A DNA stretch of 64,000 nt from Planctomycetota bacterium (GTDB taxonomy: Bacteria; Planctomycetota; GCA-002687715; DRQF01). The position numbers were made by a program. The stretch is taken from positions 1 to 64,000 of the forward strand of contig JAZGFI010000117.1 in assembly GCA_036479435.1 (NCBI GenBank), given 5' to 3'. Shown here in pieces: positions 33,001 to 39,000 of the stretch; the stretch's first letter is position 1, and each line of letters opens with the position of its first letter.

Positions 33001-36000
33001 AAGTGCGCATGGGGCCACTATCTGGTCCGCGCCAGCTTGAAGACGCGCGGGCGAATCTCGCCCGACTTCGCGAAGTCGCGGAAGTCGTCTATGGCGACCC
33101 CGATGCGAGCGATTTCGTCGGCGACGAGGAAGGCAAGGGCGCTTTCATGCCCATCTTGGTCTTAGAGGCCGCCGATGCGCGCAAGGCGGCAGCGGTGCAT
33201 GAAGTCGAGTGCTTCGGGCCGGTCACAACCTTGATGCCCTACGACGGTAGCGCGGACGATGGTGCCGCTATTGTGGCGCTCGGCGAAGGCAGCCTCGTGA
33301 CGACTTTCTACAGTGACGATCGAAAGTTCGCGGCTGAGTTCATCGAAGCCTGTGCTTCTTACCAAGGCCGATTGGTGTGGGGGTCAGAACGTGTTGCCGC
33401 CGCGGCGCCGACGCCGGGAGTGGTGTTGCCCAATTTCTTGCACGGCGGGCCGGGTCGCGCCGGCGGCGGCGAGGAGCTGGGTGGTTTGCGCGGGCTTGAG
33501 TTTTACTCCCAACGCGTCGCGGTCCAAGGTTTCGGACCTTTGCTGGATCGCTTCTTTGGGGTGAAGAAGTAGGCCTGAGAAAAGCGCGTTCCTGAGATAG
33601 AAAAAAACGAGCCGATGGCGAAGGCCATCAGCTCGTTTTTGTTTGGCGGGAGTGCATGGGAATCGAACCCACCGAACGAGTTATTTGCTCGTTCCACCGG
33701 ATTTGAAATCCGAACCCGGCACCAGCACGAGAACCACTCCCTCTGATTGTCTGCTGCGCATGTTTCTAAGGCATTGTCCTTCGGGGCGCAAGCGCCGGCC
33801 GAAAGGCCCCTTAGCGAATTCGCACGATGGCCTCGTCCTCGGCTTTGACGACCGTGCCAATTCGGGCCGCTTCTTCGAGTCCCTCGGACTTCATGCCGGC
33901 AAGGACTTTTTCGACTTGGTCTTCAGGCAAAGCGACGAGGAGGCCTCCAGATGTCTGAGGGTCAAACAAAAGTTCTTCGGACCAGCGATCGAGGTCGGTC
34001 TCAATGCGGGCAGCTGTGCCGACGTATTCCCGGCTTTCGCGAGCTCCGCGGGTGCAATATTGCTCCTGGAAGTAGTCTTCGACGCCCTTGATGCGAGGTA
34101 CGCTCGCGGCGTCGATGAGAAGGGCCGCGCCGCTTTTCTCCACCAATTCCCGGGCGTGGCCGATCAAGCCAAAGCCGGTGATGTCGGTCGCGGCCGAGAC
34201 CGAAGCTTCCAACAAGTACTCAAGACCCTTGCCGTTTAAAGTGGTCATCCAGCGAATGGCCTCTTGGACGGTGGGGCCATTGTCCTTTGAAAGCTTGGTG
34301 GCGCTCGTGATGATTCCGGTGCCGATTGGCTTGGTCAGGATGAGAGCATCCCCGATGCGAACTTTGCCGTTCGCCCAAATGTGGTCGGGGTGGACTTCGC
34401 CGGTGACGGCTAAGCCGTATTTGATCTCGGCATCCTCCACCGAGTGGCCGCCGCCGATGAGGGCTCCTGCTTCTTTCACCTTGCGTGCGCCGCCTTCGAG
34501 GATGGCGCCCAAGATATCGAGCGAGAGTTGTTTTGACGGAAAACCCACGATATTGAGAGCCACGAGGGGCCGGCCGCCCATGGCGAAGACGTCGGATAGG
34601 GCGTTGGCCGCAGCGACTTCTCCGAACTGGTAGGGATCGTCGACCATCGGCGGGAAAAAGTCAGTGGTCATCACCAGGGCGCGGTCGTCACTGATTTTAT
34701 AAACCGCCGCGTCATCGGCACCCCCAAAACCCACTAAGAGATTCGGATCGTCGCTTCGTTCAATACGTCCCAAGACCTGGGACAAACCCTCCGGGGAGAG
34801 CTTGGCCGCTCAGCCGCCAGAACTTGCGTATTCGGTGAGCCGGATGTCTTGGCTCATGACGCGTCCTCCGACAAGATTTCGATGAGCGCTTGCTCAACGA
34901 TGGCTTCGTCGCCATCGCGCATCGTCCTGAGGTCGAACAAGATTCGATCGTCCTGAATTCGGGGAAAAATTGAAATCGGGCGCTGGCGGAGAGCGCGGGC
35001 AATCTTGTCGGCGCTGTGGCCTACAGGTTGTACCGCCAAACAGCGCGTTGGAATTTGGAAAGTTGGCAAGCTGCCGGCGCCGAGTTGGCTTGTGGACTCA
35101 ATCACTTCAGGTTTAGCCGCGTCGGGAAGGATCTTCTTAAGACGTTTCACAAAGACCTCGGCTTTTTTTTGTAGCCCGTCAACTCCCGCCGTCAACATGC
35201 CTAAAGTTGGGACACGTTGGAGCACGGTTTCAGGTTCAAGATAGAGTTTGAGAGTGCTTTCCAAGGCAATGCAGGTGAGCTTGTCGATGCGAAGCGCCCG
35301 CGCCATGTGGTTGGAGCGGATGCGTTCGATCCAGGCTTTTTTGCCGACGATAATCCCGGCCTGGGGACCGCCCACTAATTTGTCACCCGAAAAGCAGATG
35401 ACATCCGCTTGTGCTTTTACACTCGCTTGCACCGGAGGGTTGTCGCTGATGCCCCAGGGGCTGAGATCGATCAGACTTCCAGACCCGAGATCGTCGATGA
35501 CCGGAATGTCGTGCTTTTTTCCCAAGGCCACCATGTCTTCGATGCCGACATGCTCGACAAACCCGATGATCTTGTAGTTGCTCGTATGGACGAGCATCAG
35601 CGCTCCAGTTTCTTCGTGGATTGCGCGCTCATAGTCGTAGACGTAGGACTTGTTGGTTGTGCCGACTTCACGAAGTTTACAGCCGCTCATTTCCATGACA
35701 TCAGGGAGGCGGAATGAACCCCCGATCTCGACCATCTGGGAACGCGACACGATGACGTCTTTGTCCTTCGCCAAAGTGTTGAGAATGATCATGGTGGCGG
35801 CCGCGTTGTTGTTGACCACGATGGCCGCCTCCGCGCCGGTGAGCTCGCAGAGCAAGTCCTCACAAAAGGCGTCGCGCTTGCGCCGGTTGCCGTCTTCTTT
35901 GGCGACCTCGAGCAGATTGTAGCGCTCGGCGGTGGAGATCTCGGCGATGGCGGCGGCCGGCAAGACGGCGCGGCCGAGCCCCGAGTGCAAAATGATCCCG

Positions 36001-39000
36001 GTTGCGTTGACCACGCGGCAAGTGCGAGATCGCGGCCAAGCCTCCAAGGCGATTTCTAATTCCCTCAAAATCGCGTCCATTCCTGGGGCGAGCTCTCGCG
36101 ACCCGGACAGCAAGTCGCTACGGACAGATTGAAGGAGGGTGCGGGCGAGGTGGCCGATCAAAGTGGGAGAGACCTTTTTGGAGGTCTTTCGAGCGTGTGC
36201 TTCGATGATCGCGCCAACCGCCGGTAAGGACCGCAATCGTTGCTGGAGTTCGGACTTGGGACTCGCGGACAAAAAACGCCTCCTGTTCGTCGTCAGGGCC
36301 TATGAATGTAAGCTCATCATGACGGCCTTGGCCATGGATGCCAAGCCGGTCCCGGGTCCTTGAACCGTGGAACGCCGCGAGGCCGGCAGAAATTGCGTTT
36401 TCTTCCTATCCTCTGATGGGCTCCCTTCATAGGATCGTCGCGGATAACCGATAGGATGGATCGAAGTGATCCCTTTTTCGGGGGATCCGCAGGGAGATTT
36501 GAGCGACATGCCCACCTTAATCCGTCGGATTTCGCAGGTTACGGCCTTGCTGGCCACGTTTTGGCTCGTTGCCGGCTGCCAGGGCACGGGGGACCGTCTT
36601 GAGGTCCCAACGCCGAGCGCCGACCGATTTGCGGGCATGACCCTTAGTTGCCTCTACGCGACGTCAATCAATCACATCGTTGCAGGCGGTTGGCTCGACG
36701 GCAAAGATGGCAGCGTCGAGGCGATCATCGTCCGGAGCTGGAACGGCGGCAAAACCTGGAAGCGGATTGGCTCCGAAACCTGGGATCAGCGCGATTTCAT
36801 CGTGCAGAACCTCCATTTCAACGATCGCATTCGGGGCTGGGCCTCGGGTTTGCGCATTCTCGAAACCGGCCCGGTCGCGACCGTCGCCCGCACCGAAGAC
36901 GGTGGTGGGCACTGGCGAGAATCCGTCATTCCTGAATCTCGCGCCTCATTTGTGTCGAACACCCGAGAGCTCGTGTTTGTGACCGACAGTGTTGGTGCCG
37001 TCGAAATCGTCTTTGAAGACCACGACACCGGCGAGTTTTTGGCCAACGTCTACACCACGAGCGACGGTGGCCGGAATTGGATCATCGATAGCTTCAAAGA
37101 GCAGGCTGAGGACGACATCACGGACCCCGCGATCTCGTTTTTCTCGGAGAGCCAGGGTTATCGCCTTTCGAGCCCTAACGAAGATGGGGTGCAGACGGTG
37201 GAATACACCGTGACAAAGGGCGAAACTTGGGTTGTCGTCGCTTCCCTCCACCTTCAGCGTTTTTCAGAATTCTATTAGCCGACACTTAGAGTTGATGGGC
37301 TAGCCTTCCTTGCGGATAATCCGCGACGCAATTCAAAACGGGGTGTAGCGCAGCCTGGCAGCGCATCTGCTTTGGGAGCAGAGGGTCGGAGGTTCGAATC
37401 CTCTCACCCCGACTTGTCCCAGTACTCTCTGACGAGAACGATCCGTCATGGCGAGGAGAAATGGGCTTTTGCTCATCAACTTGGGCACGCCAGATTCGAC
37501 GGACGTCGAGGACGTTCGTCAGTTTCTGAGCGAGTTTTTGGGCGATCCTCTGGTTTTGGGGGGATTCAGCCTCAGCCGCAAGGCACTGGTGAATCTCCTC
37601 ATTTGCCCGCTGCGCGGCCCTCGGTCGGCGGCGGCCTACGAAAAAGTCTGGACTGAGGCCGGTTCTCCCATCGCCGTTCACGGTCGCGAGCTGCGCGACA
37701 AGGTCGCGGCAGCCCTCCCCAACACCGTCGTCACTTTGGCTATGCGCTACCGCGTGCCCTCCATCGCCGCTGCTTTGGCCGAGCTTCGGGCTCAAGGTGC
37801 CGATTCTTTGGTGGTCTTGCCGCTATTTCCCCAGTTTTCGTCTTCGACCACCGAATCCATCATCCAGGATCTTAGTGCACGGCATCAGCGGATGGGCCGT
37901 CCCTTCGCTCTGAAGTTCATCCGAGATTTCTACGAGCATCCCGCGTTCATCGAGGCTGCGGCCGCCGTGGCTCGACCGATCCTCGACCGTTTCCAGCCCG
38001 ACCTTCTGCTCATGAGCTACCACGGGGTCCCGGAAGACTACCTTCGCAAAGACGATCCCAGCGGAAGCCGCTGCCTGTGGTCGGCCGAATGTTGTGACAG
38101 CATCGACGAGGTCAACCGTTCCTGCTACCGCGCGCAATGCTTCGCGACTTCCCGCGCCCTCGCTAAGGCCTTGGCGCTCGACGAAGAATCATGGTGCGCG
38201 ACTTTTCAGTCGCAGTTTGGTCCCAAGACTTGGACCGGCCCCGCCACCGCCAAGGTCATCGAAGACTTGCCGTCTAGGGGCATAAAAAAACTCGCGGTGA
38301 TCTGCCCGGCCTTTGCCGCAGATTGTCTCGAAACCTTGGAGGAAGTTGGGATGGGCCTGAAGATAGCCTTCATTGAAAACGGCGGTGAATCTTTCGAACT
38401 CATCCCCTGCGTCAACGCTCACGAGGCTTGGGTTGATGGGGTCGTTCAATTATTCCAGGAGTCTCTTGGCGCTGGCTGAACCAAGCCCAGGTGATTCGGC
38501 ACTAATCCGCTGGATCTTTAAACCCTAGAACGCTGTGGCGTGTTAGTCGACGATCAAAAACTCAAGGTCGTGTTTAGCGAACAACGCGAGCATTTTTCAA
38601 TCATGGTCTGAGAATACCAGACCTCAATTCTACCGAGGTCAAAACCTAGTCCGGCCTGAGAGAGTAGAGATGGTTGTAGCTGCGGAGGATGGACTCTAAG
38701 ATCCAGGCTACTTTGCCTACCCCAAGAAGCTTTTTCGCCTGATGCAGATCAAAAAAAAGAGGCCCATGTCTTGCAACATGGACCCCAGTCAAAAACTTCG
38801 CTTCTTGCCCTCTCTGGCACGGCGCAATGACTTGAGGGGAGGCGGTGTCGATACCGGAGCGAAAAAAACTACTTTTGTGGCAGAGGTGCGAGTCAGGCGA
38901 GAAAGTCGTCAATCGTGCCGAGTCGCAGAGAAAGCAGGAAGGCCTGGAGGCGTTCACTGGCAGCCTTGCAGCGTTTTCGCGCCGCGTCTTCGCTAATCCC

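Follow-up and report, generated by a model that had tools for sequence, protein, structure and literature searches.

The window analysed here, a 64-kb stretch of planctomycete DNA, carries on its minus strand a compact unit of selA, selD, the tRNA-Sec gene and a terminator, and elsewhere the gene of a predicted SelW-like selenoprotein. The features are as follows.

36316..36344, minus strand: sigma-70-like promoter match upstream of selA (TTGGCA, 17 nt spacer, CATGAT)
34854..36272, minus strand: selA, L-seryl-tRNA(Sec) selenium transferase, 472 aa (TIGR00474)
33811..34857, minus strand: selD, selenide water dikinase, 348 aa
34766..34784, minus strand: SECIS-like hairpin of selD, tgtcccagGTCttgggacg, 8 bp stem, GUC loop
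33644..33741, minus strand: tRNA-Sec, anticodon UCA (ARAGORN and Rfam RF01852)
33603..33640, minus strand: intrinsic terminator-like hairpin, 17 pairs and then a T run, ending the selA-selD-tRNA-Sec unit
53396..53635, minus strand: predicted SelW/SelT/SelH-like (Rdx) selenoprotein, about 79 aa, C-S-A-U motif, UGA at 53603-53605
53572-53586, minus strand: hairpin of the SelW-like gene, ccgtcaGTTtgacgg, loop beginning 25 nt after the UGA

SelA matches TIGR00474 with 526.2 bits (cut-off 267.9) over profile positions 1-453 of 455, and its stop codon overlaps the selD start as ATGA. SelD scores 378.6 bits against TIGR00476 in an alignment that begins at residue 6 and therefore spans an in-frame TGA at 34810-34812 (codon 16, context SSGG-U-AAKL); it is itself a predicted selenoprotein. 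The letters at this site are identical in contigs from runs X1 and X3, with no variant listed. The selD hairpin, whose coordinates were computed from its distance to the UGA ending at 34812, has a loop that begins 36 nt past the U of that codon. The tRNA-Sec gene fits RF01852 over model positions 1-91 of 91 (67 bits; gathering score 47; E 1.8e-11). The promoter candidate is a consensus match only (9/12), and the region has two such matches where shuffled sequence would give 0.6. The selB gene is on contig C237; its frame reaches a summed 357.4 bits against TIGR00475, and in a profile search of the genome SelA, SelB and SelD all exceed the curated cut-offs. A 2-selenouridine synthase was not found in this genome, which is 92% complete. 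The preliminary description had listed tRNA-Sec, SelA, SelB and a Sec-containing SelD, and ARAGORN with RF01852, TIGR00474, TIGR00475 and TIGR00476 bear out all four. As in the selA/selB/selC/selD system of E. coli, every component is present and a coding-region hairpin with a G-U loop directly follows the UGA; the differences are that selA, selD and tRNA-Sec here form one unit, that selB is elsewhere, and that SelD contains the predicted Sec.

We consider it about 90% probable that the organism uses the standard route of bacteria to read the set of in-frame UGA codons described below as selenocysteine. The Sec-containing SelD would make selenophosphate, SelA would convert Ser-tRNA(Sec) to Sec-tRNA(Sec), and SelB would bring the charged tRNA to a UGA that has, 22-37 nt further downstream, a short hairpin whose apical loop contains G-U (SECIS), a route that would serve about 42 genes with 46 UGA codons. 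We infer Sec insertion itself from sequence, as we do the export, redox function and aerobic lifestyle discussed below.

Genome-wide, 111,968 in-frame TGAs were scored, of which 730 had coding sequence on both flanks in the best of the six frames. Inspection of 73 loci led us to keep 44 and discard 29. Support for a gene was either a Pfam or NCBIfam domain crossing the UGA, or an alignment of orthologues with TGA or Cys in that column. The scan recovered, family by family, all 36 genes and 39 UGA codons listed before: 17 TlpA/Trx-like genes (18 UGA), DsbD, Bcp, deiodinase-like, ArsC-like, four HMA (6 UGA), two AhpD-like, FdhA, MsrA, two DUF3179, two FG-GAP, SelW-like, F-C-U and SelD. The claim of at least 35 selenoprotein genes thus holds, and as a total the earlier figure is too low. 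Six genes are added: an Ogt/MGMT methyltransferase, a second F-C-U paralogue, a BNR-like propeller, a Cys-rich lipoprotein, an FG-GAP/ASPIC/thioredoxin protein and a two-Sec DF-family protein. The total is 42 well-supported genes with 46 UGA codons, or 44 genes with two "possible" ones. The source is a 299-contig MAG (92.25% complete, 1.08% contamination) in which a few contigs could be mis-binned. Pairwise identity among the 44 kept proteins never rises above 56%, so the count does not owe its size to duplicates from mixed strains, a concern raised earlier.

Hairpins were scored by a rule requiring a stem of at least 6 bp and GU in the apical loop, 22-37 nt downstream of the UGA; this distance fits the published bSECIS model, in which the loop reportedly lies at 16-37 nt. 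A conforming hairpin follows 34 of the 39 sites listed earlier. The rule was drawn up after viewing the sites of this genome, which leaves 63 TGA sites in orthologues from relatives as its only independent test; 54 of them have such a hairpin, with stems that partly overlap conserved peptide motifs. The same rule is satisfied by 6.6% of 6000 random coding windows and by 5.8% of 1285 ordinary TGA stops, so that hairpins at the kept sites are enriched about 14 times over background. Orthologues of the FG-GAP/ASPIC family have one at 19/19 sites, with varied stems.

These data bear on the possibility that the TGAs are normal stop codons, arose by mutation in pseudogenes or are errors of assembly, or that neighbouring genes share a frame by chance. 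Such cases do exist, and 29 of the 73 inspected loci were of this kind. Within the window, the TGA of an acid phosphatase gene was rejected as Sec, as it aligns with Trp in 7/7 orthologues and lacks a hairpin that fits the rule; on C78, the TGA of a histidine kinase gene lies within the kinase core. Joined frames were separate genes at L047 (MFS and cytochrome c), L055 (peptidase S46 and TruD) and L056 (two tandem paralogues). In the 42 kept genes, by contrast, the TGA falls at a redox or metal-binding residue with the domain continuous on both sides, the column keeps TGA or Cys in genomes that share 30-84% identity, and the enriched hairpin is conserved. Independent assemblies from three studies are letter-identical over 33600-53599, so the TGAs there are not an assembly artefact. 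For the kept genes this explanation is largely refuted by sequence comparison, and we rate it as very improbable.

Less probable still, to the point of being negligible, is an altered code that reads TGA as a sense codon throughout (e.g. Trp or Gly) and not as site-specific Sec. The acid phosphatase, with its TGA at a conserved Trp, would suit such a code. Against it, TGA ends more long ORFs than any other stop (1294 of the 2784 with at least 300 codons), only a few dozen of the scored TGAs pass the coding and homology tests, the kept TGAs align with Cys rather than Trp or Gly, and the complete set of tRNA-Sec, SelA, SelB and SelD is encoded. Decoding as Sec remains the preferred reading, and the proteins are described below on that basis.

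In twenty proteins Sec takes the first CxxC position of a thioredoxin fold (TlpA/ResA-like, DsbD, Bcp and deiodinase-like). The AhpC-TSA/Redoxin domain crosses the UGA in loci L009-L018, L020 and L036; L009-L018 and L020 match PF00578 or PF08534 with E values of 1e-7 to 1e-25, AhpC-TSA reaching 89 bits across the UGA. Pfam matches are weak for L019, L024 and L027, and the TGA is conserved in orthologues of L019, L024 (4/4) and L027 (2/2). The motif DFWG.W-U-GPC marks a family with 82 instances across 80 loci (74 TGA and 8 Cys), mostly in Planctomycetota with some in Verrucomicrobiota. In its six paralogues here predicted signal peptides precede N-terminal domains that are helical, divergent and long (250-520 aa), and no dedicated NCBIfam selenoprotein model matches them above cut-off. 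They share first-CxxC Sec in a TlpA/ResA-like domain with the Prx-like thiol:disulfide oxidoreductase/redoxin/TlpA selenoproteins of the 2026 catalogue (PF00578, PF08534, cd02966; UxxC), from which they differ by these long N-terminal domains.

Elsewhere the domains crossing a UGA are HMA, CMD, Molybdopterin (FdhA), DUF3179, Rdx, PF01035, PMSR and T4_deiodinase, and NCBIfam scores include 349 bits for NF041383 and 115.8 bits for NF041106. In the SelW-like protein of the window, PF10262 Rdx aligns across U12 (67 bits, residues 3-75), alongside NF041051 (66.6 bits) and TIGR02174 (56.6 bits). One HMA metal-binding protein has three predicted Sec residues; its orthologues (HMA3) keep TGA at site U2 in 7/7 and at U3 in 11/11. 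Orthologue columns are TGA in 4/4 for L022 and 5/5 for L048, and four TGA plus one Cys of five for L023; the F-C-U family has nine TGA and one Cys of ten, the BNR-like propeller TGA in 3/3, and the Cys-rich lipoprotein Cys in 4/5. In Ogt/MGMT the predicted Sec occupies the acceptor Cys of the P-C-H-R motif, with PF01035 (104 bits, residues 112-194) crossing U163 in VVP-U-HRV and TIGR00589 scoring 87.9 bits; its hairpin has 4 bp under the rule and, judged by eye, a stem of 7 bp capped by an AGGGU loop. An O6-alkylguanine-DNA alkyltransferase selenoprotein (PF01035) already has an entry in the 2026 catalogue. The DF-family protein (L233) resembles NF049942, matching positions 1-95 of 96 with 56.8 bits when both TGAs are read through and positions 1-68 with 40.3 bits when one is; the curated cut-off is 70, and the protein, which behaves as a member would, is a candidate for the family.

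In the FG-GAP W-U-C family one TGA is held by 18 of 19 matches, and full-length database homologues have Cys-Cys. The FG-GAP/ASPIC column holds 20 TGA, one Cys and one Glu among 22 orthologues. In distant full-length homologues of the latter the aligned residue is Glu, Ser, Asp, Asn, Met or Gly, and Cys in only 4 of 49; Sec would thus not be substituting for a universally conserved Cys. Among the matches listed, most public gene calls in the two FG-GAP families are cut short at the TGA: about 110 of 120 in one set cover only 69% of the query, and in another 61 of 120 stop at the U column. They are named 'VCBS repeat-containing' or 'hypothetical'.

An N-terminal signal-like segment was found in 31 of the 44 kept proteins by a crude hydropathy test, in agreement with the dominance of secreted thioredoxin-fold U-xx-C proteins proposed earlier. 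Most of the set has predicted signal peptides or lipoboxes, and the bulk of the selenoproteome probably acts outside the cytoplasm in thiol/selenol redox and metal handling. Heme-copper oxidase subunit I has three matches (478, 208 and 59 bits), which uphold the label 'aerobic-type' as genomic potential only. Selenoproteins of the glycine/proline reductase, Hdr and NiFeSe hydrogenase types, which are hallmarks of anaerobes, did not turn up in the genome scan. In eight family relatives, PF00578 matches with an in-frame TGA number 3-8 each against 11 here. From such sequence counts the Sec-rich trait is the lineage's and not peculiar to this genome: the 17 TlpA/Trx-like genes of the proposed lineage-specific expansion stand, and the expansion is not confined to this genome.

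The selenoproteome could then be real yet ordinary, large Sec sets being a general, catalogued trait of Planctomycetota and nothing here being new. We think this unlikely, though it is the strongest of the alternatives. Among 40 relatives 34 have a tRNA-Sec of at least 65 bits, the same families carry TGA in relatives, and existing NCBIfam '(seleno)protein' models match several genes here; BSepDB puts its contents at 57,630 entries, covering 16,621 species in 88 lineages. Selenoproteins were also reported in 2016 from planctomycetes P1 and P2 of Porphyra blades (Kim et al. 2016, PMC4807772), an oxic, algal-associated habitat. The available passages of that paper describe full Sec machinery, FdhA, antioxidant selenoproteins and, as here, unusual sel gene clustering, but they speak of a handful (six antioxidant selenoproteins in P1), not of dozens, against about 42 here with families those passages leave unmentioned. 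A 2026 review contains no occurrence of Planctomycet* and calls selenoprotein retention rare in aerobic bacteria. Its table of 119 selenoprotein families has no FG-GAP, ASPIC, VCBS or BNR entry, and of our families FG-GAP W-U-C, FG-GAP/ASPIC, F-C-U and BNR-like are absent from it. The BSepDB top-10 list includes no Planctomycetota, and most public calls of both FG-GAP families, among the matches listed, stop at the TGA. In our assessment the novelty is moderate, with a known mechanism in a new setting and with some new families.

The genome had been ranked among the Sec-richest outside Thermodesulfobacteriota and Methylomirabilota. With 42 well-supported genes (44 with the possible ones) at 92% completeness it does not reach the 46 to 63 genes of the BSepDB top-10 table and stands just below it; the ranking must also admit further groups, since the table includes UBA8248/Nitrospinota-labelled and Dehalococcoidia genomes. 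Published Sec-rich anaerobes include Desulfobacterota, the Delta 1 symbiont of Olavius algarvensis with 57-63 genes, and a MAG of Methylomirabilota with 63 (PMC13188914 and PMC13326102). They likewise have dozens of selenoprotein genes, many thioredoxin-fold or metal-binding and split by gene callers; unlike them, the present genome has 42-44 genes, three heme-copper oxidase subunit I homologues and an exported appearance in about 70% of the products.

Reviews up to 2026 hold Sec-rich bacteria to be mostly anaerobes; at the genome level, this rule is contradicted by a planctomycete lineage that has genes for oxygen respiration and about 40 predicted, for the most part exported, selenoproteins. 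A wider reading, which we advance tentatively and at slightly under even odds, is that an oxygen-respiring order of Planctomycetota keeps a mostly exported selenoproteome of 30-45 genes, its extracytoplasmic chemistry being selenol rather than thiol, with at least five uncatalogued families. As part of this reading we propose FG-GAP W-U-C, a CRTAC1-like FG-GAP/ASPIC/thioredoxin family (KD[TL]-U-S.[FY]WR), an F-C-U thioredoxin-like family, a BNR-like propeller (PG-U-PVNGP) and a PWDFC-U lipoprotein; a tandem U-U protein may be an additional candidate. Were it true, the textbook tie between large selenoproteomes and anaerobiosis would be an artefact of sampling and annotation. The data further suggest that a widespread aquatic phylum has a significant need for selenium as a trace element. 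In the FG-GAP and BNR-like families Sec would sit in beta-propeller proteins without an obvious redox fold, which raises a new, testable question. If the genome has about 4,700 genes, as its gene numbering implies, standard callers split or shorten about 0.9% of them. In public databases, hundreds to thousands of truncated 'VCBS repeat' or 'hypothetical' fragments are probably halves of selenoproteins.

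The selenocysteine (Sec, U) machinery in the window forms one unit on the reverse strand, with these features:

36344-36316, reverse strand: promoter-like match
34854-36272, reverse strand: selA (TIGR00474, 526.2 bits)
33811-34857, reverse strand: selD (TIGR00476, 378.6 bits)
33644-33741, reverse strand: tRNA-Sec gene (ARAGORN and Rfam agree)
33640-33603: terminator-like hairpin of 17 pairs at the end of the selA-selD-tRNA-Sec unit

selD and selA lie directly upstream of the tRNA-Sec gene on the same strand, the selA stop overlapping the selD start. selD carries an in-frame TGA itself (34810-34812, context SSGG-U-AAKL), which is covered by the TIGR00476 match since that begins at SelD residue 6. 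SelB is encoded on contig C237 (TIGR00475, 357.4 bits across a 676-codon frame), and the Sec insertion mechanism is the standard bacterial one. A profile search of this genome (5.47 Mb in 299 contigs, G+C 58.1%, completeness 92.25%, contamination 1.08%) found no 2-selenouridine synthase (TIGR03167); as far as seen, the role of SelD is limited to protein Sec.

Sec sites were sought with a three-periodic Markov coding model trained on the long ORFs of the genome. Both flanks were scored for 111,968 in-frame TGAs with an open frame on either side, and at 730 sites both flanks were coding and in the best of the six frames. We examined 73 loci, chosen mainly from their TGA contexts, and searched the translations read through the TGA for Pfam and NCBIfam domains; 44 were kept and 29 rejected. 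In all, 42 genes with 46 UGA codons are well supported, and adding two possible genes brings this to 44 genes with 49. This confirms the large selenoproteome seen in the preliminary description, whose 36 genes and 39 UGA codons were every one recovered by our separate scan, although its total was too low. Of 14 candidates from a looser scan for N-terminal Sec sites, the ArsC-like gene alone was convincing. TGA is the commonest stop codon here, terminating 1294 of 2784 ORFs of at least 300 codons, which excludes a reassigned genetic code. Nor is the count inflated by strain mixing, as had been feared for the paralogs, since no two of the 44 proteins are more than 56% identical (over 146 residues).

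UGA sites of the 36 genes of the preliminary description (contig:position)
TlpA/Trx-like (17 genes, 18 UGA): C263:3983, C290:351, C211:8446, C112:6459, C170:22049, C181:7920, C96:7815, C279:18551, C181:4587, C141:13139, C75:10123, C69:4345, C274:4859 and 4499 (one gene), C97:31012, C294:2479, C289:38541, C201:9957
HMA (4 genes, 6 UGA): C146:3355, C109:1396, C96:7090, C124:11794/11551/11311
AhpD-like: C62:1647, C201:8912
DUF3179: C262:46936, C163:1244
FG-GAP: C220:1002, C295:7573
DsbD: C271:81511
Bcp: C185:14439
Deiodinase-like: C175:2542
ArsC-like (NF041106): C70:6935
FdhA: C131:4713
MsrA: C170:24702
F-C-U: C46:7967
Rdx: window 53603
SelD: window 34810

In most of these genes the UGA is spanned by Pfam or NCBIfam domains. 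The C274 gene is of NF041383 type 2 (349 bits), its second Sec falling within the MsrA-like half; the ArsC-like gene was missed by PF03960 and detected by NF041106. Where the family match was weak or absent, the TGA column was compared in orthologues from relatives. The same column holds TGA in 4/4 orthologues of locus L022, 4/4 of L024, 2/2 of L027, 4/5 of L023 (the other having Cys) and the one orthologue of L019 (49% identity). For the three-Sec HMA protein the counts are 7/7 at site 2 and 11/11 at site 3, for F-C-U they are TGA 9/10 and Cys 1/10, and for FG-GAP W-U-C a single TGA occurs in 18 of 19 matches. The deiodinase-like selenoprotein (C175:2155-3447, reverse strand) has a lipoprotein signal followed, within the N-terminal half, by several EF-hand calcium-binding motifs, an unusual fusion.

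The UGAs are also marked by RNA structure. At 44 sites, 60-nt folds from the UGA averaged -17.9 kcal/mol, vs -15.1 elsewhere in the same genes (Wilcoxon p = 2.5e-6). A recurrent motif follows, a short perfect hairpin with G-U in its loop (GGUC, GUU, CGUGA), from which we defined a rule. It requires a stem of 6 bp or more, a loop 3-8 nt long in which GT begins at one of the first three positions, and a loop start 14-42 nt past the U of UGA. The rule holds for 36/44 (82%) of the first site list and for 34/39 sites of the preliminary description (loop starts 22-37 nt downstream), vs 6.6% of 6000 random coding windows and 5.8% of 1285 ordinary TGA stops. Because the rule was derived from this genome, the fair test is the orthologous TGA sites of other genomes, where 54/63 (86%) conform. 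Among 1873 other TGA sites, 112 (6.0%) match, which is the background rate; three of these loci (L046, L074 and L075) were taken further, and the remaining tested loci were rejected.

Several genes are additional to those of the preliminary description. An Ogt/MGMT alkyltransferase (C113:12413), of a selenoprotein family already catalogued in the part of the 2026 review that we cite (PMC13188914), has Sec at the acceptor position (VVP-U-HRV), with PF01035 scoring 104 bits across the UGA. A BNR-like propeller (C283:2013, PG-U-PVNGP) has TGA in 3/3 orthologues, a second F-C-U paralogue (C262:50374) has TGA in 5/5, and a Cys-rich lipoprotein (C226:1647, PWDFC-U) has Cys in 4/5. A DF-family protein has two UGAs (C249:36929 and 37124); against NF049942 (cut-off 70) it scores 40.3 bits over profile positions 1-68 before the second TGA is read through; reading that TGA as well extends the match to positions 1-95 of 96 and 56.8 bits, still short of the cut-off. 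A further gene is:

C126:1754-4687, reverse strand: L075, FG-GAP/ASPIC/thioredoxin lipoprotein of 978 aa, UGA at 2861 (KDT-U-SVYWRHVV)

It comprises six FG-GAP repeats, UnbV_ASPIC and a C-terminal thioredoxin domain. At the U column, 20 of 22 homologous loci of relatives have TGA, one has Cys and one Glu, and the hairpin follows 19/19 placeable orthologous TGAs, with differing stem sequences. Among 49 full-length database homologues of greater distance, the residue at this column varies and is Cys in 4, so Sec is not a simple substitute for a universal Cys. In L075 and its relatives (L173-L193) the SECIS stem is formed by the codons of a conserved peptide, W-R-[HQ]-V-V, which is found also in non-Sec homologues from other phyla; the hairpin may have evolved more easily because this peptide motif already existed.

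Two genes are graded as possible selenoproteins. L046 (C209:1612, GEC-U-K) has an 8 bp GGU hairpin after the TGA, and was downgraded; its sole orthologue, an uninterrupted ORF, has Asp at the U column and no Cys. The other is a tandem U-U lipoprotein with no NCBIfam match:

C75:12388-13371, reverse strand: L234, lipoprotein with TGA-TGA at 12406-12411, ending KYAAP-TGA-TGA-AIPDCK-stop

Its 8 bp GUA-loop hairpin lies 38-41 nt downstream of the TGAs, past the stop codon.

The 29 rejections are mostly same-frame neighbours, such as peptidase S46 with TruD or MFS with cytochrome c. Loci L028, L037, L047, L049-L052, L054-L056, L058-L068 and L076-L082 proved to be neighbouring genes, ordinary stops or frames that are not coding. 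L054 (C10:14773-16164, forward strand) is an FG-GAP frame whose TGA falls within a DGDG-x-LE repeat, 13 codons past another stop, and which looks scrambled towards its C-terminus, so that an FG-GAP gene in decay is probable. L067 (C78:3657-5513, reverse strand) is a histidine kinase frame reaching the contig end, with a single TGA between HisKA (387-454) and HATPase_c (503-610) and no Cys near it, possibly a pseudogene or a read-through gene. One rejected locus is in the window:

46853-47719, reverse strand: L026, acid phosphatase of HAD-IIIB/e(P4) type, in-frame TGA at 47342-47344

Its domain matches cross the TGA (PF03767, 134.8 bits; TIGR01533, 189 bits), and no rule-conforming hairpin follows. 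Trp occupies that column in 7/7 aligned same-family orthologues, so the TGA is an altered TGG and not Sec, and the preliminary description was right to omit this pair. Contigs of three studies (two of them possibly the source of this DNA) have an identical sequence here and show no listed variant, so the TGA is not an assembly slip; the gene either carries a fixed nonsense mutation and is dead or is read through. Across window 33600-53599 (20 kb), long contigs of these three studies, with the same reservation on their source, have zero differing letters, so near-identical strains recur in separate samplings; one run covering the stretch is labelled invertebrate metagenome. Among the runs listed for the window there was no RNA run.

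Three matches to heme-copper oxidase subunit I (478, 208 and 59 bits) indicate a capacity for aerobic respiration, and the genome-wide TGA scan gave no glycine/proline reductase, Hdr or NiFeSe hydrogenase candidates. The label "aerobic-type" stands as genomic potential and no further. By a crude export test (Met, then K/R, then a 12-residue window of mean hydropathy at least 1.9), 31 of the 44 kept proteins have an N-terminal signal-like segment. The other 13 include SelD, FdhA, Bcp, both AhpD-like proteins, Rdx, the ArsC-like protein and MGMT, all expected to be cytoplasmic.

A tRNA-Sec gene scoring at least 65 bits was found in 34 of 40 sampled relatives (7/8 in the family, 14/14 in the rest of the order, 13/18 elsewhere in the phylum). 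PF00578 matches with one in-frame TGA number 11/19 here, and 7/9, 8/13, 7/15, 3/10, 6/10, 8/11, 7/14 and 7/10 in eight family relatives. GTDB species genomes contain at least 582 relatives of the DFWG.W-U-GPC family. Across the 80 best loci, mostly from Planctomycetota with some from Verrucomicrobiota, the motif occurs 82 times, with TGA in 74 instances and Cys in 8. TGA forms of the multi-Sec HMA, FG-GAP and F-C-U families extend across several families of the order. The trait is thus the lineage's, with this genome at the upper end. The expansion proposed in the preliminary description is real but lineage-wide (3-8 TGA-bearing PF00578 matches per family relative vs 11), and its interpretation is supported, with the count raised, the spread widened and aerobic life restricted to genomic potential.

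The cited part of the 2026 review catalogues 119 selenoprotein families, finds the richest selenoproteomes in anaerobes (57 in the Olavius Delta 1 symbiont, 63 in a Methylomirabilota MAG) and holds that aerobic bacteria rarely retain selenoproteins (PMC13188914). In the same part Planctomycetes are never mentioned; its table includes Prx-like, redoxin, DUF3179, AhpD-related CFYUT, VPGUxxT, ArsC-like NF041106, deiodinase-like, MGMT, DF and SelW-like families, thus most other families of this genome, unlike FG-GAP, ASPIC and BNR, which together with VCBS have no entries there. The BSepDB top ten, in the part of its report cited here, have 46-63 genes each and include no Planctomycetota (PMC13326102). 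Kim et al. (2016), as far as cited here, described the Sec machinery and a few selenoproteins in two planctomycetes of an intertidal alga (PMC4807772). The deep-Sep paper contains no words beginning Planctomycet-, Pirellul-, Gemmat- or aerob-, and neither HMA nor FG-GAP; a literature search pairing FG-GAP with selenocysteine returned a single paper, an unrelated one on mouse. What is new is the scale of the selenoproteome in an oxidase-bearing planctomycete lineage and its mostly predicted-exported character, and several of the families are apparently uncatalogued; per-genome counts for Planctomycetota may already be in print in the BSepDB tables, the groundwater-MAG study of Deng et al. or S9 Table of Kim et al. 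In public gene calls, about 110 of the 120 best FG-GAP W-U-C homologues span only the 69% past the TGA, full-length homologues having Cys-Cys at the site, and 61 of the 120 FG-GAP/ASPIC homologues listed stop at the U column. The truncated calls are named "VCBS repeat-containing" or "hypothetical".
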